Source: a virus. From it: DNA of 64,000 bases. Positions 3,777 through 27,397 of the stretch are shown piece by piece. Position 1 is the stretch's first letter, and the number at the start of each line of letters is the position of its first letter. The position numbers and the translations under genes are program-made. The DNA is taken from UHGV virus genome UHGV-0348865. One strand, written 5' to 3'. The notes under the pieces are model-generated. The model saw only the letters and a program-made list of their open reading frames with translations, was not told the DNA's origin and made no database searches.

Positions 3777-6700
3777 CACTCCTTAGGTCGAACTCTTACA
3801 CGGAGTCTCGATTGACGCTTACTGCGTTCAAGCTTCTCTGACAATGAGCCACGTTTAATCTTCGGCTTCCCTTCGTCATTAAACTTCTCCAAGAACTTCA
3901 AGTACTCAGTACGATTCGTTGTCTTGTAAGAAGGAATCTTAATATCAGGGTTCTCTTCAATCACACGTCTCATCTTCGCTACATCATCCCTACCAAGCAA
4001 CTTACTCTTAGCCTGTTCAGCTGTAGAACCAAAGATCTTCTCCAGTGCTCTAGATTTGTTACCACCTGCGGAAGAAGCACCAAGTTTAGCAATAGCAGAG
4101 TAATCATCAGCACTAAACCAAGCTACTGGATTATCACCATATTTCTTCTTGTTTTCAGCAGCAGTCTGCAATGCACGTACAAAGCGACGGTTGTTACCAG
4201 CTTTATCTGCACCATGAACCCTGTCTAAAACTTCAGCCACACTAGCCAACTCATCCAAGCTTTTCCCACTCAAGAAAGCTTTCTCTACTTTATCAGCAAA
4301 GACCTCTTCCTGTTGTTTAATGCTTTCCAAGATATCAGAATTTGCTTGAGATCTTTCATCGTCAGGCAGAGCAGAACGAATCTTCTCCATCTCCAATTCT
4401 TCCTCTTGCAGTTTCTTAATATCAGAGTCAACCTTCTGAGCCTCTTCAATAGCCTTCCTAGTATCCGCATCCAAGTTATCAAGTTTACCTTCAGTGTCTC
4501 CAGTAACCTTAACAATCTCTTTCTCAATAGGAGTCATTGATTCGTACTTCTTAGCGAACTTCTCAACATCAGCTTCGATACGAGAACGAGCATTCTGATG
4601 TTCAGTAGGAGTCATAGGCTTCTCAAGAAGTGCATAACGGTTATCCATATAGGAACCAGCAAATGCTTCAGCATCCTCTCTAGATATGCCCTTATCTTCC
4701 ATAGTACGCATCAGGCGGCGATGAATGTCATCACGTTGACGTTGTACTGCCATAAGGTCATTCTCACGCTCTTGGGCCGCTTTAAGCTCTTCACTGCGCT
4801 TAACTCTCTTGTCCACATCAAACTTACGGTTCATCTCTTCCGCTTGCTCATACATCTTGTTCCACTTGGCCTGACGAGCATCTTCCTCTGCATCAGTTAA
4901 ACGACGCTGACGATCAAGGTAATCTGACTCGGCGTTATGGATACGTTCGATATAACTACGGAACTTCTCTGGAGGAACTGGAGAGTTCTTGTCATGGTGA
5001 GCAGCTAACTGTTTCAATGTACGAGATTCCTGAGCCTCACGGACAGGTTTAGGTAAACCTTCCATCATCTTCTCAATCTCACTCTTCTGAGCTGCAATAG
5101 CCTCTAGAGTTTTACGTTCATTCTCAACAGCAGCCTTAGCATCTGAACGAGCCTGAGCCTTTTTCCTGAGGGTAGCAAGACGTTCTTCACGAGCCTGTAA
5201 GTGCTTAGCAGCAGCTTCGTACTGAGAGTTCTTGTTAGCTTTGTTGAAGGCATTCACTTCTCTGTTGTAGGTGTTAATAAACCCATCCCAAATATCCTTC
5301 ATCTGACCAACTTCCAAAGCCTCTTCCCTACCAGCCTTCTCTGAAGATTTAAACTTCCCATCTACAAAGTCATTCATCAGCTTACGCATAGCATCTTTCT
5401 GAGCAGGACGTAAAGGTTCTGAATCAATCAAAGCATCAATCTCAGACTGAAGCTCTTTCTTCTGGTCAACCAGTTTAGGAGCATTCTTGTTATCGAAAGC
5501 TTTGTTCTCTTCTAGAGCTTGTTGATACAATCTATCAAACTCATCTTCACGCTGCTTCTGATACAACCTTTCAGCACGACGTTTCAGACTATCCAAGTTA
5601 GTTACGTTCCCACCTAAACCTTTCTCTTCAGCACGTAATGCCTTAGTAGCAACGTCTTCTGGCAGACCACGTTCCTTAACCCATTCAGCAAAATTAGTTC
5701 GTACAGTGTTGTTCTTAGCAGTAGCAATACCTTGCTGAGAAGCCAGCTGGTTACGAGCCATTTCTTCATGACGTTCAGTGTTGATAGCATTATCTTCCTG
5801 ACGAATACGACGCATCAGCTCCTTAGGATCACCTTTATAAGCCAAGAAGTTTTCAGCAGTAGCTTTAGCTTTAGCAGCCTTAGAGTACAGAGAACGAGCA
5901 AAACGTTCTGCACGATCTTTAGTAGCCTGACGAGCAGCACTAGACATAGCAGCTAAACGTTCTACACCACTTGCCGGTTTAACGTCCTGTACAGCTTCCT
6001 TAGAAGCTTTAGGAGCACGGGCAGGTAATGGCTCAGCTTTGACTGTTGGTTCCTCTACAGTTGGTTCTGGAGCCTGTACGGCCTCTTCTTGAGCACGTTG
6101 CTGTTCCATTGCACGACGCTCCTCTAAAGGATTACGAGCAGGGAGAGGTTCAGCCTGTGGAGCTTGTTCGACCGGAGCTCCTTGAGCAGCAGCTGCCTCT
6201 TCTTCAGCGCGACGCTGTTCAGCCTGACGGATAGCACGTCTTTGCGCAACTAAATCACGAGCTGTAAGAGGAGTTTCTTGAGGAGTAGAAGAAGGAAGAT
6301 TTTCTTCCGTCACAGTACTAGAAGAAGGCTCCCGAACCGGTTCGGTTTCCACGTCATTTTGCGTCTTAAATTTAATGTCATCAACAACTGGTTCTTCTTC
6401 CATCTTAGCACGAGCTTCATCAGCAGTAGATTTAGCACGAGCAACTTCCAAATCACCACGAGCCAGAGAGCGAATAGCCTCACTGTTAGACTCTTGTTGC
6501 TTAACACGTTGAGAGCGAGCACGCTGAGAAGAGAAGCGATTCAGAGCATACTTAGCAGCACCAAGGGTGTTCATAACCAGACTAGGAGAAGAAGCCTCAC
6601 GGAAGCCATCATCAGTCAGGGAAGTCCAACCACGGTCTTGGTTGCTCATGAACTTAGCTGTATTATTCAGAGTGTAAGCATCTTGAATAGGATTAAAACC

Positions 6701-21663: not shown

Positions 21664-24600
21664 TTAACGAGCTTTCAGTACAGCTACTTCATTCTCTAGA
21701 GCTTCAATCTTGTCCAAGAGGACAAGAAGAACTTCGTGATGAAGAGCGGCTGCTACACCATAGGTGTCAACAGATTTAACATCCTTCACAATTGTTCCAT
21801 CTTTCAACTCCGTGTCAGAGAACTTAGTAACCTTGACGGCATCCGGAAAAACCTTCTCAACATCTTGAGCTAAGAAACCAATACCATTGGGCTTAGAGAG
21901 TTTATCCAACCGCTCCCATGTTACACCCTTAATAGCTTTAAGTTTCTCTATAGGGTTTTCAATCCGTTTGATGTTCGTCTTAAGCCTCTCATCAGAGGTG
22001 CTTGCCCAATTTCCTGCTTGTGCCGTTCCATCAGGAAAGAACTTGAAGTCAGCAGCTGTTCCAGTACCACCATTCACAGAAATCTGAGCGTGCATCAACT
22101 CTGTTCCACCACCACGAACACCACCAAAAGTGTAACTGCCATCATACCAGTCACCAGAGAAATAGGAAACATACCCCGGAGTACTTTGGTTGAAATTGAT
22201 CATCCTGATAGCGTTCTTCTCACTTGGTGCTACACCAACAGAATTGTTAGCCCTGACCAGCACGTCAGTAGGTCTTAAGTATGCATCAATTGTTAGTGCC
22301 CCGTCAGCCCTCTCTGTTCCAATCTGGGTGATAGCATTGGGAAATACCAGAGTACCAGCATTATTGAATTTCCATTCCTGGTTTCCATTAAGAATCTTAG
22401 CACCAGACTTATTAGAAGCCCCATCTATCTCTCCATAAGCAGACATAGTTGCTGAGTAGGTTAAATCTGTTCCTATCTTATATTCTGAACGAACCAGACC
22501 ACCAGATACAGTAAACCCAGCCGATGGTTTAACATCATCGCTATTAATAACACTCCAAGAAGTATTAGCAGCAGTAAAGCCACCATTAGCACGAATCACC
22601 CAGACACCTATGAAGCTGTTGGTGCGGACTTCGGTCGTGTTGTCGCGACCATAAGCGGCGTTTGATAGGCCCGCTCGAAAGCCGACGGAAAGCGCTGGTG
22701 TGGTTCCTGCGCCTAACGGAATATTAAGTGCTGGATCAGCCGCAAACATCGCCCCCGTAGGATCTCCATATACGCTCCATATGTTCGCACCAACGGAGCC
22801 TGTAATATCAGGCGCGGCGTTCTGCTGAACAGTACCGTCGTTGGCGCTGTTACCACCGTCACCGCGAGCATACAGACCAGAGATAGAACCGGTTTGAACG
22901 CCATTTCTATCAGGAACGCGGAAAGTAGTAGAACCATCACCTAAAGAGTATTTACCTCTTTTCTGAGGATCAGCCAGCCAGTCAGCATCTGTGATAGGGC
23001 TTAAGGCTTGAGCATAAGCCCATAAATCTGGATATGAAGTACGAGACAAAAGTTGTCCATCAGAAGGTACATCATTAGAGTGAATTAAAGCACGACTATC
23101 AATTAAACGGAAATCACCTATGTTGAAGTTGGACACTCCGTTTAAGCTTGCACCACTTCCACCACCTCCTTGGTTGCGTAATTGACGAAGGGTAACTGCA
23201 TCTGAATCACTAACCGCATCACCACCTAAACGAGTGGGACCAATCAATCCTTCCAGTTTCGTAATATCTGAGTTAACCCCAGAAGAGTTGATAGCAGCAG
23301 CACCAATAGCAGCAGGAGTAGGTTTGTTACCTTCAGTGTAAAACTTATTCTCACCGCTAGGACCAACATGCACAGGAACCGAAGCAGACAGCACTTTTGT
23401 GTTACTTGTATCGTTGCCAACCAAGACAGTACCGTCAGAACCAGAGGTGATCAAATTAACAGCAACACCATTACTAGAAGTGCCTGTTAATACAATACCT
23501 GTTCCTAGATTTAAGTGTCCTGTCATTTTACCACCAGAAGTAGGAAGAGCACCTAAATCAGAAGAGGTCAAAGCAACATTACCTGTTACCTCGTCAGGAA
23601 CTTTTCCATTAACTGCAACAACATATGGAACTTGAGCAAGAGGCTTACCATCATACTGAGCATCACTGGTAAGATTTGGAGATCGAATTGCTTCCCCTCC
23701 TGTCCAATCAGGCAGACGGATGTTGATGTAGTTTGTAGAATCCGCATCAGTGATACCGTCAGCAAGTTTACCCCAAGAATAGTATTGCTTTGAACCAGCC
23801 TGCCACTCTGTCTCAGAAACTACCGGAAGCTGACCGTTGACCAAAGAAGCTCCTAAATCTGATGCAGTGTCTTTGGAAACCAAACGACCATCAGCAGGCA
23901 AAATACCCGGGTAAGAAACAGGACGAGATGGGTCATATGGAAACATCAACAATTCACCAAGATACAGAGATGGGTTCCCTGTCGGGATGGTGATATCAAT
24001 ATTACCAGTTGAGTCAGGAATACGAGAGTTTACTGTTATTACCCTATTCTCTGTCTTAACTGGGGTTAATGTTTTGTTCGAAGCTACAGTATAAAATTCA
24101 TATTTGTAATCTTCCCAAACCAGAACGTTCTCACCAGTTTTTCTGTTAACAGCATCGGCATCAGCCGCAGCTTTTGTTCTGTATGTTTTAACATAACCAT
24201 CCACTTTCCCATCAACCTGAGATGTACTGTAAGATGCAACGTTTACGACATTATTTAAACCAACTGAAGTTTTATCTAAGACTAGATTAACATCACCGGT
24301 AGCTGGAGATCCTCCGTTCACTGCAACTGAACGAACAGATGGGATTAAGTTAGCGATATCCTCTAAGGTTGTTTTATGTACGGTATTATCGTCCTTATCA
24401 ACATAGAATCCTAAATCACCAAGCTCAGGAATACCTGTAGGTGCTGTATCCAAGTCTTTAACAGAACCATCTTTTCCGGGTTCGCCTTCTGGGATACCTA
24501 AAGAGATTACACCAGTGTTAGGGTTAAAAGAACCAGTAGCTTGACTCCCCGGAGGAAGGGTAGTTACATCAACAGACATTCCCAACAGGATATCAAGCTG

Positions 24601-24951
24601 TCTCTGAACTTCGATTAGTTTCTGGTTAATGAGAGCAACGGCATTATTAGCATCCGACACTGCTGCGTTAGTCTGAGCAATAAGTGTCATCAAACGAGCA
24701 TCTTGATCTTTAAAGTCCTGTTTAAGTTCTTCGATATCTTGCTTCATTAAAACACCTTGTTGATACAGACGTTCTACTTCAGTGATCAAGTCATCAATTG
24801 TACCAAACTTAGACTCCGCTAGCAGTGCCCAATATTTGGAGTCAGCTGCATATTCTGCTGCTTGCTTGTAAGCTCCGATAGAGCCTTCCTTAGCACCAAA
24901 CTGCCCAACATCATTCACTGCATCAGGTGCTTGGTTATTATAAACGATCAT
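21664..24951 (-). CDS. long tail fibre with C-terminal intramolecular chaperone (peptidase S74) domain
   Basis: C-terminus SDERLKTNIKRIENPIEKLKAIKGVTWERLDK...GFLAQDVEKVFPDAV...LHHEVLLVLLDKIEALENEVAVLK; shares a tail-collar-like central module with the 702-aa fibre. Confidence 0.85.
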   Translation of the reverse strand: MIVYNNQAPDAVNDVGQFGAKEGSIGAYKQAAEYAADSKYWALLAESKFGTIDDLITEVERLYQQGVLMKQDIEELKQDFKDQDARLMTLIAQTNAAVSDANNAVALINQKLIEVQRQLDILLGMSVDVTTLPPGSQATGSFNPNTGVISLGIPEGEPGKDGSVKDLDTAPTGIPELGDLGFYVDKDDNTVHKTTLEDIANLIPSVRSVAVNGGSPATGDVNLVLDKTSVGLNNVVNVASYSTSQVDGKVDGYVKTYRTKAAADADAVNRKTGENVLVWEDYKYEFYTVASNKTLTPVKTENRVITVNSRIPDSTGNIDITIPTGNPSLYLGELLMFPYDPSRPVSYPGILPADGRLVSKDTASDLGASLVNGQLPVVSETEWQAGSKQYYSWGKLADGITDADSTNYINIRLPDWTGGEAIRSPNLTSDAQYDGKPLAQVPYVVAVNGKVPDEVTGNVALTSSDLGALPTSGGKMTGHLNLGTGIVLTGTSSNGVAVNLITSGSDGTVLVGNDTSNTKVLSASVPVHVGPSGENKFYTEGNKPTPAAIGAAAINSSGVNSDITKLEGLIGPTRLGGDAVSDSDAVTLRQLRNQGGGGSGASLNGVSNFNIGDFRLIDSRALIHSNDVPSDGQLLSRTSYPDLWAYAQALSPITDADWLADPQKRGKYSLGDGSTTFRVPDRNGVQTGSISGLYARGDGGNSANDGTVQQNAAPDITGSVGANIWSVYGDPTGAMFAADPALNIPLGAGTTPALSVGFRAGLSNAAYGRDNTTEVRTNSFIGVWVIRANGGFTAANTSWSVINSDDVKPSAGFTVSGGLVRSEYKIGTDLTYSATMSAYGEIDGASNKSGAKILNGNQEWKFNNAGTLVFPNAITQIGTERADGALTIDAYLRPTDVLVRANNSVGVAPSEKNAIRMINFNQSTPGYVSYFSGDWYDGSYTFGGVRGGGTELMHAQISVNGGTGTAADFKFFPDGTAQAGNWASTSDERLKTNIKRIENPIEKLKAIKGVTWERLDKLSKPNGIGFLAQDVEKVFPDAVKVTKFSDTELKDGTIVKDVKSVDTYGVAAALHHEVLLVLLDKIEALENEVAVLKAR

Positions 24952-25713: not shown

Positions 25714-25814
25714 AGGTTGTCCTCCTTGTTATATGTAGACAAAGAATATACATTACACACTGGCTTGTATAGGTCTTAAAACGAAAAAACCCCGCCCGAA
25801 GGCAGGGTCTAATT

Positions 25815-26327
25815 TTAAGCAGGTGTTACACCAGTAAAAGTGCATGTTGCATTGATAGACGGGTCAGCTGTCAAACTAGCTTGAACAGTAACTTCGCCAC
25901 TTGCAGCAGCATCTAATTTTAACGAATTATTAGCGCTTATTGTACCAGCTTCTACGGGAGTTACAACAAGTGTGTAATCATCAGCAACAGAATTGGTTAC
26001 AGTAAACATGGTGTTGAAGTTAGTGGTAGTACCACCTACTTTACCTGTAATTGGCCCACGACTCACAATAGTAGGAGCAGGAGCAACAATTTCAGAAATG
26101 GTTGCTGTACCAGAAACACCTTCTAAAGTTGCAGTAATGGATACATCAGTGGATTGAGACGCACTCGGAGCAGTATACAAACCAGACTGAGTGATAGAAC
26201 CACCTCCTGTCACTGACCAAGTAAAGCCAGTTGTTTCGGTAGAACCATCACTTTTCTCCGCGCTTGCAGTGAACTGCCGAGTAGCCCCTGTCTCTAGACT
26301 TGCTAAAGACGCAGGGCTAACAGTCAC
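25815..26327 (-). CDS. Ig-like (Big_2-type) capsid decoration domain protein; possibly expressed as a frameshift extension of the capsid protein
   Basis: Thr/Ser/Gly-rich beta-sandwich-like sequence (FTWSVTGGGSITQSGLYTAPSASQSTDVSITATLEGVSG); GTG start 11 nt after the capsid stop, in the -1 frame. Confidence 0.6.
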   Translation of the reverse strand: MTVSPASLASLETGATRQFTASAEKSDGSTETTGFTWSVTGGGSITQSGLYTAPSASQSTDVSITATLEGVSGTATISEIVAPAPTIVSRGPITGKVGGTTTNFNTMFTVTNSVADDYTLVVTPVEAGTISANNSLKLDAAASGEVTVQASLTADPSINATCTFTGVTPA

Positions 26328-26338
26328 ACTGTCTACTG

Positions 26339-27397
26339 TTACGCCGCCACCTTTCCCGCAGCAGTGAACAGAACGCCGGAAGCATACGGGTTGCGGTGAC
26401 GCAGACCAACTTCCATTTCAATCATCCACTTCTCGTAAGAACCGTCTTTAGCCAGTTCAGTACGTTTCGGAGCACGCAGAACCATCTGAGTCCAGTCAGC
26501 GCTACGGAAGAAGTAAACTGCATCGGTAGGCATCCAACGGTTAACGATGATTTTGTAGCTCTGGCCCAGCGGGTCAGTGATGCTGTTAACTTCGTAGATG
26601 AACTGCTTGGTGTTCTCAAAGATACGCTTACGTGAACCCTGAGTATTTTCTTGCAGGCCAGCGAAGATCTTAGCATGAGCCGGGTTGATCATGATGATAT
26701 CTGCTTCAGAACCAGCGGTATACAGTTGCAGAGTCATATCAAAGATATCAGCTTCGTCGAAACCAATGTTAGTGGTCGGGTTAGAAGCATTCTGTGCAAC
26801 TTTAACAGTTACTGCACCAGTATCCGGGTCAGCAGGACCATTCTTAGTCTTGTCAACAACGCCACCAGACAGACCACCGTGAGCACACAGGAACTGGAAT
26901 GCACCAGTCTTACGAGCTGCATGGGTGTCGTTCTTACCAATCTGATCTGGATCAGTTGCAGAGTTAGTCAGGTACTGGTCAGCCAGAACGTCGGTACGAG
27001 CCTGACCGGACAGAAGGATTTTCTCGAGGTCACGCTTAATCTCTTTACCTTTCTTCTCCAGCTGATACATCAGTTCACGACCACGACCGTAGTTAGCGGT
27101 GGTGTTAGCAGTATCAGAAACACGAACAACCTTACGCAGAATCTGAGTAACGTTAGATTTGATAACAGTCGGTTTCATTTCGCCGTCTTCAGCACGAGAG
27201 CCTTCGACGTGTGCGTTATTACCGTCAACGCTTGCCAGTGCATCGGTCTGCCAGCTAAAGATAGTCTGGTTGATAGACTCTTTACCGGTCATAGATACGA
27301 ACGGGGTATCCTGAGGGGACAGAACAGAAATCCAGTTAGCAAAAGAAAGTTTTTTACCATTCTGGTCATACGATACAAATAAAGTTGGATTAGCCAT
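26339..27397 (-). CDS. major capsid protein
   Basis: 352 aa directly downstream of the scaffold gene; host-like highly-expressed codon usage; canonical terminase-portal-scaffold-capsid order. Confidence 0.75.
   Translation of the reverse strand: MANPTLFVSYDQNGKKLSFANWISVLSPQDTPFVSMTGKESINQTIFSWQTDALASVDGNNAHVEGSRAEDGEMKPTVIKSNVTQILRKVVRVSDTANTTANYGRGRELMYQLEKKGKEIKRDLEKILLSGQARTDVLADQYLTNSATDPDQIGKNDTHAARKTGAFQFLCAHGGLSGGVVDKTKNGPADPDTGAVTVKVAQNASNPTTNIGFDEADIFDMTLQLYTAGSEADIIMINPAHAKIFAGLQENTQGSRKRIFENTKQFIYEVNSITDPLGQSYKIIVNRWMPTDAVYFFRSADWTQMVLRAPKRTELAKDGSYEKWMIEMEVGLRHRNPYASGVLFTAAGKVAA
26351..26357 (-). other. candidate -1 programmed ribosomal frameshift slippery heptamer G GGA AAG
   Basis: Minus-strand GGGAAAG in X XXY YYZ register relative to the capsid frame, 3 codons before its stop; the -1 frame is open from here into the Ig-like ORF. 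Confidence 0.5.

Follow-up and report, generated by a model that had tools for sequence, protein, structure and literature searches.

The closest described systems to the locus analysed here are the capsid genes of phiEco32-like phages and of Privateer. In SU10, the capsid gene CDS9 has a named GGGAAAG site and forms of 38.5 and 55.4 kDa by mass spectrometry (PMC4281155), and the same report describes the frameshift 'as in phage phiEco32'. Slippage was later described for YF01 and for the whole phage group (PMC9965538), and the capsid frameshift of Privateer was documented by two protein bands plus mass spectrometry (PMC7881722). A frameshift joining a capsid protein to an immunoglobulin-like (Ig-like) extension is thus already published for phiEco32 (as cited in these papers), SU10, YF01 and Privateer: it is real, but it is not new. 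For this phage group, we found in the sources read neither a junction-defining peptide nor a measured frameshift efficiency. The present locus shares the published arrangement, since in phiEco32 (gp11-gp12), SU10 (CDS9-CDS10), YF01 (gp8) and Paul the gene pair, the position of GGGAAAG and the Ig extension in the -1 frame are all as in the window.

Organization of the capsid locus

The window, i.e. the whole stretch of 64,000 nucleotides that we analysed, belongs to a Kuravirus (phiEco32-like) podophage of E. coli, and its DNA across the capsid/Ig region is 96-98.6% identical to Kuravirus genomes. The upstream gene and the end of the region are as follows:

26339..27397, minus strand: major capsid protein gene, 352 aa, 38.8 kDa, with an ATG start and the Shine-Dalgarno sequence TAGGAG
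25787..25810, minus strand: intrinsic terminator-like hairpin with a T-run, 5 nt after the stop of the extension

The upstream protein is a member of the SU10_MCP capsid family (PF17236; Pfam E 7.6e-77) and also matches PHROG 1328, major head protein. Read on the minus strand, the 3' end of its ORF is ...GCT GCG GGA AAG GTG GCG GCG TAA, with the TAA at 26341..26339. The hairpin at 25787..25810 coincides with the place where the SU10 record has an annotated terminator. The stretch from the capsid stop to the Ig ORF holds neither a terminator nor a promoter, which places the two on one mRNA.

The slippery heptamer and the geometry of the two frames

Four further features describe how the two reading frames meet:

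26351..26357, minus strand: slippery heptamer G_GGA_AAG, over codons 347-349 (A-G-K) and in X_XXY_YYZ register; it lies 16 nt upstream of the stop of the capsid gene
26342..26417, minus strand: zone where the 0 and -1 frames are both open, flanked by a -1-frame TGA (26420..26418) and the capsid TAA (26341..26339)
25815..26351, minus strand: -1-frame extension of 178 codons plus stop (25817..25815), GGGVTVDSVTVSPA...GVTPA, with two tandem Ig-like (Big_2-type) domains
25815..26327, minus strand: annotated 170-aa ORF with a GTG start at 26327, as called by gene callers and in most GenBank records

The codon phase of the heptamer, in which GGA is codon 348 and begins at 26356, confirms what the sequence-only reading had claimed, namely that GGGAAAG lies in X XXY YYZ register three codons before the stop. 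The GTG at 26327 likewise places the 170-aa Ig-like ORF where that reading had put it, 11 nt past the capsid stop and in the -1 frame. The reading was also right that the -1 frame is open from an upstream TGA, but its distance of about 26 codons does not hold, as the TGA lies 23 codons before the first post-shift codon. The frame is open from 26417 to 25818 and closes at 25817..25815. After a -1 slip, translation would continue as GGT GGC GGC GTA ACA GTA GAC AGT GTG... (GGGVTVDSV...), and the predicted fusion has exactly 527 aa (349 + 178) and 56.0 kDa, against 38.8 kDa for the capsid protein, in line with the earlier estimate of roughly 530 aa and 55-60 kDa.

A shift can join the capsid and Ig ORFs nowhere but in the zone at 26342..26417, which holds a single in-register heptamer. 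G_GGA_AAG is moreover the sole in-register X_XXY_YYZ heptamer anywhere in the capsid gene, and it is rated as highly shift-prone in E. coli (review PMC5009743). The bare GGGAAAG motif is not enriched in the window (10 observed vs 7.4 expected). As this count is uninformative, we used in its place an outlier test on the length of the open -1 run, covering 41 in-register heptamers in the window's ORFs of 150 aa or more (39 ORFs). After such sites, the -1 frame stays open for a median of 4 codons and for 18 codons at the 90th percentile. The longest run is that of 178 codons at the capsid site, and the second longest has 33. The configuration of heptamer and -1 frame in the capsid gene is a strong outlier and is more than chance.

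Other ways of joining the two ORFs were ruled out: transcriptional slippage, because no homopolymer run at the site exceeds three; the +1 frame, because it closes 8 codons after the stop; and readthrough, because the Ig ORF lies outside the 0 frame. Elsewhere in the window, a second candidate frameshift cassette has an in-register A_AAA_AAG at 56991..56997 on the plus strand, followed by a 6-nt spacer and a hairpin, in a glutamine amidotransferase ORF. We regard it as incidental; it is not conserved in the ECBP2 homologue.

The geometry also bears on how the junction could be seen by mass spectrometry. Lysine 349 sits exactly at the fusion junction (...FTAAGK/GGGVTV...), and a junction-spanning tryptic peptide would fail for this reason. 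A peptide spanning the junction, TAAGKGGGVTVDSVTVSPASL, would come from cleavage after F and L. The first post-shift codon, which precedes GTG 26327 by 8 codons, is where the tryptic peptide GGGVTVDSVTVSPASLASLETGATR begins.

The Ig-like extension

The AlphaFold2 model of the extension has a mean pLDDT of 96.6 and is all-beta, with two domains. Its top Foldseek match is to the tandem Big domains of LigA (8gyr, E 8e-11), and other matches include Big_2-CBM56, NCAM and titin. At rank 50, the model also matches the phi29 prohead entry 8f2n_E (E 4.7e-4), which we take to be the phi29 capsid protein gp8, presumably matched within its BIG2 domain. At the level of sequence, the extension matches PHROG 13745, 'Ig domain containing protein' (E 4e-75), and has a weak PDB match described as 'bacterial immunoglobulin domain B1'. 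A search of the extension for Pfam Big_2 (PF02368) gave no Pfam match even at E = 10, and some homologues of the extension carry PF02368. Because Pfam is silent on the extension, we took the assignment from the structure model, the fold search and PHROGs: the extension is Ig-like by fold, without profile-level membership in Big_2. The two tandem Ig-like domains of the model agree with the initial description of the downstream ORF as Ig-like. In the model, strand A of domain 1 is formed by residues 6-12 of the extension and begins upstream of the GTG codon.

Conservation of the site and the SU10 discrepancy

The heptamer is kept in 12 relatives, and indels between the heptamer and the stop are multiples of three. 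The heptamer with its flanks, GCTGCGGGAAAGG, is invariant in the Kuravirus and Suseptimavirus relatives that we read, and the heptamer is also present in three Privateervirus loci. In the Proteus phages Privateer and 3H10_20, whose capsid identity is 57%, the gene ends with GAG GGA AAG TAA, and the overlap of the frames is the heptamer itself. In the Privateer record, the CDS of the minor capsid protein is annotated as a join and marked 'verified via mass spectrometry'. Behind the invariant heptamer, the extension varies in a modular way and ranges in length from 178 codons to over 450, always in the -1 frame: YF01, Paul, Bas89 and EK010 have longer Ig arrays, and phiEco32 has 178 codons like the window.

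SU10 is the exception to the three-nucleotide rule. A 1-nt insertion in its deposited sequence (the stretch concerned is GACACTGTCTACTGTT) breaks the -1 link and truncates the extension. The data on this phage clash, as a 55.4-kDa form was found by mass spectrometry and the deposited sequence is unable to encode the fusion. Later work contradicts the mass spectrometry: in the cryo-EM map of SU10 there is no extra density for the Ig protein, and there is no gel band either (PMC9965538 and the SU10 cryo-EM paper). The missing density and band in a phage with a broken link fit the fusion being the only route of the Ig domains into the virion.

Different arrangements, which would give the same two-isoform outcome, were observed among other relatives. 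Lahexavirus LAh_6 and four metagenomic relatives have the non-canonical site G_GUA_AAG, followed after 6 nt by a GC hairpin (the LAh_6 site reads CTG AAG GTA AAG CCC TAA). One relative (L013) has A_AAA_AAG in place of G_GGA_AAG. In SE131, A24 and two further relatives (L028 and L032), the capsid gene is duplicated, and its second copy carries an extension in frame.

RNA structures around the heptamer

Three hairpins are predicted near the site:

26311..26350, minus strand: proximal hairpin, a candidate stimulator, immediately 3' of the heptamer, with core UAACAGU/ACUGUUA and flanking GGC/GCC
26269..26327, minus strand: alternative distal hairpin of 20 bp, more stable, beginning 23 nt after the heptamer
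26344..26364, minus strand: small hairpin CUGCUGC/GUGGCGG with the heptamer as its loop

Folded alone, the proximal hairpin has a predicted free energy of -15.5 kcal/mol. It is predicted in all eight aligned relatives (-10 to -26.5 kcal/mol), in which the arms AACAGT and ACTGTT are invariant and the loop is variable. The distal hairpin shares bases with the proximal one, so that the two are mutually exclusive, and it would bury GTG 26327. The 113-nt region has a minimum free energy of -47.9 kcal/mol (z = -3.2). The distal hairpin is also supported by RNAalifold. Across eight closely related sequences, 97.5% of its cells are paired and three of its pairs show compensatory changes, compared with 29-49% of paired cells in slid controls. 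The equivalent of the small hairpin around the heptamer was noted in SU10 by Mirzaei et al. (PMC4281155). No Shine-Dalgarno-like element was seen 5' of the heptamer, and an Rfam scan of 26100..26500 gave no known frameshift element.

Is the downstream ORF a separate gene?

Almost all GenBank Kuravirus records present the capsid and the Ig ORF as two separate genes. We read the 170-aa ORF as the 3' part of the frameshift product, rather than as a separate gene. GTG 26327 is not preceded by a Shine-Dalgarno sequence and forms the weakest duplex with the 16S tail among seven starts tested; by contrast, each of the portal, scaffold, capsid, adaptor and fibre genes starts with ATG behind a Shine-Dalgarno sequence. 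The GTG is not conserved, being ATA or GTA in some relatives, and the first in-frame start of the extension is found at codon 9, 16, 34 or 47 depending on the relative, and at codon 61 in Privateer. Database homologues have seven different called starts and lengths of 110-254 aa, with N-termini cut into the first Ig domain, and the codons that precede the relatives' starts encode, in the model, the first beta-strands of that domain. When the window is compared with one relative (L005) over the first 99 nt of the extension, 9 of the 12 differences fall at third positions, and 8 codon changes are synonymous against 3 that are non-synonymous. By this comparison, the codons upstream of any start evolve like coding sequence.

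The in-frame GTG could nevertheless act in two ways. The frameshift fusion might be accompanied by some free Ig protein, made by low-level reinitiation at the GTG after the TAA. The 11 nt between stop and GTG are a distance that permits reinitiation in bacteria, and the codon is retained in the phages of the clade that have it (the window, phiEco32, SU7 and ShigP1). However, it specifies a conserved Val/Ile of strand A, and no role as a start is needed to explain why it is there; it is also missing from sister lineages with the same architecture. We find such a double route improbable. An equally small chance attaches to the ORF being an ordinary gene that starts at GTG 26327, in which case the Ig protein would be a free decoration protein, bound noncovalently to the head like T4 Hoc, and the heptamer would be coincidental. 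This would agree with the prevailing annotation and with the SU10 cryo-EM paper, in which gp10 is considered as a minor capsid protein that may bind separately, and termination-reinitiation is conceivable at this spacing. It fits poorly with the weak start, and with relatives that have ATA or GTA and start 16-47 codons in, inside the first Ig domain, or even at codon 61 as in Privateer. The coding constraint on start-less codons, the burial of the GTG in the predicted distal hairpin, and the persistence of the heptamer and its frame relation down to 57% capsid identity also argue against it.

Least probable of all, and hardly credible, is that the locus is decaying, for example because an indel broke what was once an in-frame capsid-Ig fusion, with no functional frameshift and an unexpressed Ig ORF. 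SU10 did lose the link by a single-base insertion without losing viability, and SE131 and A24 carry true in-frame capsid-extension fusions. However, the frame of 178 codons is intact, and purifying selection acts on it in lineages differing at many synonymous sites, the modular diversification has kept to the -1 frame behind the same heptamer, the extension model is confident and well folded, and there is published protein evidence for extended forms (PMC4281155, PMC7881722).

Proposed mechanism and significance

The conservation of the heptamer, the three-nucleotide indels, the weak GTG start, the Ig fold and the match to published systems all favour the central claim of the sequence-only reading, a -1 frameshift fusing the capsid protein to the Ig-like ORF. 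We consider it highly likely that a minority -1 shift at G_GGA_AAG produces a 527-aa minor capsid protein with two tandem Big_2-type Ig-like domains. Most ribosomes would reach the capsid TAA and make the 352-aa, 38.8-kDa capsid protein of HK97 fold. A minority would slip one base back, as tRNA-Gly and tRNA-Lys leave GGA and AAG to pair with GGG and AAA. These ribosomes would miss the TAA, which lies 9 nt further on, and add 178 codons in the -1 frame. The product would be a 56-kDa minor capsid protein with tandem Ig domains at its C-terminus. By analogy with lambda G-T and with gene 10 of T7/T3, the inferred shift might have an efficiency of a few percent to about 10%. Stimulation, if any, could come from the predicted proximal (26350..26311) or distal (26327..26269) hairpin. 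The fusion would then co-assemble into the prolate head, such that a small, constant share of the subunits has Ig domains at the surface, and these, like other phage Ig domains, may provide weak adhesion to carbohydrates or surfaces.

The real product of the locus is very probably the 527-aa minor capsid protein, and its correct annotation has practical value, because metagenome gene calls also split the capsid from an arbitrary, often N-terminally truncated 'Ig domain protein'. It bears on virion proteomics, on the reading of cryo-EM maps, and on the adherence of therapeutic-candidate phages to mucus or surfaces. In the paper on ES17, a close relative, mucin binding is credited to the tail fibre and the capsid extension goes unmentioned. 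The C-terminus of the capsid protein, where the extension is attached, is a natural site for display. No new biological question is opened by the locus.

A broader idea is more tentative. The SU10_MCP family may have repeatedly solved the problem of making a minority of Ig-bearing subunits by interchangeable routes, namely G_GGA_AAG, G_GUA_AAG, A_AAA_AAG and capsid duplication, which we see as a real possibility with the balance slightly against it. If G_GUA_AAG works and duplication truly replaces frameshifting, these phages would offer a compact natural series for studying why plain and extended subunits should stand in a particular ratio.

Comparison with known systems

Between the window and the phiEco32-like capsid frameshift, nothing of substance differs. 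Privateer (Grimontviridae) is like the window in having a capsid of the SU10_MCP family, G_GGA_AAG and a -1 extension of about 169 aa. It is unlike it in that the heptamer abuts the stop, the frames overlap by 7 nt and the sequence of the extension is unrelated in detail.

The likeness to 10A/10B of T7 and T3 is one of arrangement: in these podophages, too, ribosomes shift by -1 close to the 3' end of the major capsid gene, and the resulting minor capsid protein has a C-terminal extension that is exposed at the surface; the gene 10 extension of T3 is Ig-like (PMC5009743). T7 differs by its capsid family, by its shift site, where X_XX is G_GU, and by an extension that is not Ig-like, and its shift depends on a distal 3' element at a distance of over 200 nt. 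Lambda G/GT has the identical G_GGA_AAG, and its -1 shift in E. coli is in the low percent range, about 3.5% as cited in PMC9965538. Its products, however, are tail assembly chaperones that stay outside the virion, and the shift serves a fixed ratio of chaperone forms, with no display of Ig domains.

Closer in outcome is the class of Fraser et al. 2006 (Lactobacillus phage A2 and Listeria phages A118, A500 and PSA), in which recoding adds a C-terminal Ig-like domain to a fraction of a major structural protein (PMC5009743). Hosts, capsid families, shift sites and directions all differ from those of the window, and PSA uses a +1 shift. Finally, phi29 gp8 and T4 Hoc also place Ig-like domains on the head surface, but in phi29 the domain is in frame on every subunit and in T4 it is a separate protein, whereas in the window only the frameshifted fraction would carry it.

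A slippery site in register at the end of the capsid gene

The 1.8 kb around the proposed frameshift site are 96-98.6% identical to many Escherichia Kuravirus phages (FS2B, DE5, ES17, phiEco32, SU10 and others). Scaffold and portal genes lie upstream of the capsid gene, and adaptor (Pfam SU10_adaptor) and tail fibre genes downstream. We found neither promoter nor terminator between the capsid ORF and the 170-aa ORF that follows it (25815..26327, minus strand; Ig ORF). The latter is the 3' part of 178 codons in the -1 frame (25815..26351, minus strand), which we call the extension. The end of the tail fibre ORF (…LKTNIKRIENPIEKLKAIKGVTWE…) appears to resemble an intramolecular chaperone/peptidase S74.

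Features at and around the capsid gene
26339..27397, minus strand: major capsid protein gene, 352 aa (Pfam SU10_MCP, E 7.6e-77; PHROG 1328)
26364..26344, minus strand: predicted small hairpin with the heptamer in its loop
26350..26311, minus strand: predicted proximal hairpin directly 3' of the heptamer (UAACAGU/ACUGUUA; -15.5 kcal/mol alone)
26327..26269, minus strand: predicted distal 20-bp hairpin, more stable, beginning 23 nt downstream of the heptamer
25810..25787, minus strand: terminator after the stop of the extension
21664..24951, minus strand: tail fibre ORF, 1095 aa, downstream of the adaptor

On the minus strand the capsid gene ends ...ACT GCT GCG GGA AAG GTG GCG GCG TAA. Counting codons from the ATG at 27397 makes GGA the 348th, so GGGAAAG (26357..26351) is read as G_GGA_AAG, in the X_XXY_YYZ register proposed by the sequence-only reading; no other heptamer in the whole capsid gene is in register. 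That reading was also right that the -1 frame opens after an upstream TGA (26420..26418), although this lies 23 codons ahead of the first post-shift codon and not about 26; from there the frame is open as far as the stop at 25817..25815. The GTG of the Ig ORF (26327) is codon 9 of the extension, which agrees with its earlier placement 11 nt past the capsid stop and in the -1 frame. A -1 shift following K349 gives ...FTAAGK-GGGVTVDSVTVSPA..., a predicted product of 527 aa and 56.0 kDa (38.8 kDa for the unshifted capsid protein), close to the roughly 530 aa anticipated. The last 0-frame residue ahead of the shift is this lysine (window 26349-26351). Trypsin cuts exactly there, so standard tryptic proteomics yields no junction-spanning peptide; the diagnostic tryptic peptide of the fusion is GGGVTVDSVTVSPASLASLETGATR.

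Sequence, comparative evidence and published precedent in the group all support the frameshift reading of the capsid/Ig pair, and we consider it very likely that a capsid-Ig fusion is made through -1 frameshifting at G_GGA_AAG.

Chance occurrence

The bare GGGAAAG motif is not enriched (10 copies in the window, 7.4 expected). We therefore turned to the window ORFs with 150 aa or more, 39 in number, and determined the length of the open -1 run behind each X_XXY_YYZ heptamer that is in register. Past the 41 such sites the median run is 4 codons, the 90th percentile 18 and the second-largest value 33. The capsid heptamer, with 178 codons, is the only one whose run reaches far beyond the 0-frame stop. 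The combination of heptamer and long -1 frame exceeds chance.

Another slippery sequence, A_AAA_AAG, stands in register at 56991..56997 (plus strand), within the ORF of a 563-aa glutamine amidotransferase-like protein (55543..57234). Behind it come a spacer of 6 nt (GAGGAA, with an overlapping AGGAGG) and a CCUGCU/AGCAGG hairpin, the whole spanning 56991-57020. A -1 shift there would add 4 codons and then stop, the pattern of dnaX tau/gamma. This candidate second cassette is probably incidental, because the Lys-Lys site is missing in the ECBP2 homologue (PKNAPKE).

Conservation of the site and the exception of SU10

We compared Kuravirus and Suseptimavirus sequences (phiEco32, ShigP1, SU10, SU7, EK010, Bas89 and the IMG/VR loci L003-L007). 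All share the block GCTGCGGGAAAGG unchanged, differences in heptamer-to-stop length are of +3 nt, and in all except SU10 the -1 frame runs on, by 178 codons in the shortest case and by more than 450 in the longest. The extension is modular: most Kuraviruses have 178-180 codons, EK010 (L023 2538-3654) has 371 and Bas89 (L021 2553-3936) has 460; the total isoform of YF01 has 892 aa (PMC9965538). Since these varying lengths always stand behind the same invariant heptamer, they suggest a cassette-like gain and loss of Ig domains. In the Proteus phages Privateer and 3H10_20, and in locus L026, the capsid (57% identity) ends ...GGA AAG TAA. In the two phages a -1-frame stop lies directly ahead of the heptamer, so the frames overlap by its 7 nt only, which pins the shift site.

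The deposited SU10 sequence carries a single extra base (GACACTGTCTACTGTT, versus GACAGTGTGACTGTT in the window) at about 1975-1990 of its locus L015, aligned with window 26331..26316. With it the -1 frame ends 11 codons past the heptamer, an exception already noticed and explained (PMC9965538). The extra base may be the reason for an SU10 cryo-EM map without Ig density, but the 55.4 kDa form earlier reported for SU10 is at odds with it.

Predicted RNA structures

The small heptamer-loop hairpin had been noted for SU10 by Mirzaei et al. (PMC4281155). The proximal hairpin is predicted in 8/8 aligned relatives, its arms being invariant and only its loop varying; the SU10 extra base would make it a perfect 11-bp stem (-26.5 kcal/mol). 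For the distal hairpin, 97.5% of cells are paired, versus 29-49% with partners slid, and three pairs show compensatory changes, all among 8 closely related sequences. The proximal and distal hairpins share bases and cannot coexist; either is a candidate stimulator, if one acts, and these 8 sequences do not discriminate between them. An Rfam search around the heptamer gave no match.

The Ig ORF as a possible separate gene

Independent initiation at the GTG would leave the two ORFs as ordinary neighbours. Among seven late-gene starts compared, all others are ATG behind GAGG, AGGAG or AAGGAGG; that of the Ig ORF is a GTG behind GGCGGCGTAACAGTAGACAGT, with the weakest 16S-tail pairing. At this position L004 has ATA, and Bas89, L005, L006 and EK010 have GTA. 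Their first in-frame starts come at codon 34 (L004, Bas89), 47 (L005, L006) or 16 (EK010), none with a Shine-Dalgarno sequence. Homologues in the protein database have seven different called N-termini and lengths of 110-254 aa, and most start at 'MSDGS', within the first Ig domain. The start-less codons are nonetheless coding, judging from substitutions: over the first 99 nt of the extension, L005 differs from the window at 12 sites, 9 of them third positions, and the codon changes number 8 synonymous and 3 non-synonymous. The comparison with L004 yields 11 synonymous changes and 9 non-synonymous ones, a pattern like that of the remainder. The Ig ORF is very probably not an independent gene.

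Fold of the extension

A Pfam search of the extension gave no match. Its AlphaFold2 model, built on 24 homologues, has two all-beta domains (mean pLDDT 96.6), with the first modelled strand (residues 6-12) starting ahead of the GTG codon. The best Foldseek match in the PDB is to the tandem Big domains of Leptospira LigA (E 8e-11), followed by S-layer, NCAM, titin, cadherin, invasin and Big_2-CBM56 entries; the phi29 prohead chain 8f2n_E is also matched. The predicted fold thus confirms the earlier description as Ig-like. The study of mucin and heparan-sulfate binding by ES17 credited the tail fibre and did not consider the capsid extension.

Other arrangements in the wider capsid family

Capsids 53-66% identical to that of the window show varied arrangements. 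In the metagenomic loci L008 (3900-3960), L009, L010 and L011 and in Aeromonas phage LAh_6 (L018, 3400-3690), at 57-66% identity, the capsid gene ends CTG AAG GTA AAG GCG/CCC TAA. An Ig-like -1-frame ORF of 89-171 aa follows, with no start codon ahead of codon 17; in LAh_6 its tail is annotated as 'putative tail protein'. None of the five has a strict X_XXY_YYZ heptamer, and G_GUA_AAG is the best candidate shift site; for each half there is a precedent, G_GU (T7 gene 10) and the A_AAG tetramer (PMC5009743). In L008-L010 a GC-rich hairpin (GCGCCC-CUAC-GGGCGU) stands 6 nt beyond this site. The metagenomic L013 (55% identity) has a dnaX-type A_AAA_AAG in register (3921-3931), 10 nt ahead of the capsid stop; its -1 frame opens only 13 nt ahead of that stop and encodes a 42-aa Pro/Val/Lys-rich extension with no Ig domain.

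Salmonella phage SE131 (L017 1485-4261), Cronobacter phage A24 (L019 2492-4596), L028 and L032 have two capsid paralogues and no frameshift. Those of SE131 and A24 are in tandem, 74% identical in each of the two pairs, the second copy being extended in frame at its C-terminus (SE131: 586 aa; A24: 361 aa and a Big_2-like VTVSPEDADQ motif); in L028 and L032 a similar capsid of 585 aa is also extended in frame. Duplication looks like it does here what recoding does in Kuravirus. SJSY21, APT65, L029 and L030 have no extension. Aeromonas phage APT65 (L020 569-3427) has three major-head-protein paralogues in tandem that share 53-57% identity and all lack both an extension and a frameshift site. This variety suggests that a mix of plain with extended capsid subunits may be selected for and would be reached by different means.

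Comparison with known systems

The capsid-Ig frameshift is already known for the phiEco32-like group, and this exact feature is published. For SU10, GGGAAAG was named in the major head gene in 2014, a fusion with the Ig-like CDS10 was predicted 'as in phage phiEco32', and forms of 38.5 and 55.4 kDa were reported (PMC4281155). Privateer has the same heptamer, and its minor capsid protein was detected by MS (2021; PMC7881722). Slippage was described for YF01 'and other group phages' in 2023, with extended isoforms of about 500-550 aa (PMC9965538). The appending of Ig-like domains to phage structural proteins by frameshifting, invoked at the outset, is a reviewed phenomenon, with T3 gene 10, Lactobacillus A2 and Listeria phages as examples; the same review counts G_GGA_AAG among the highly shift-prone sites in E. 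coli (PMC5009743). The identical site of lambda is cited as working at about 3.5% (PMC9965538).
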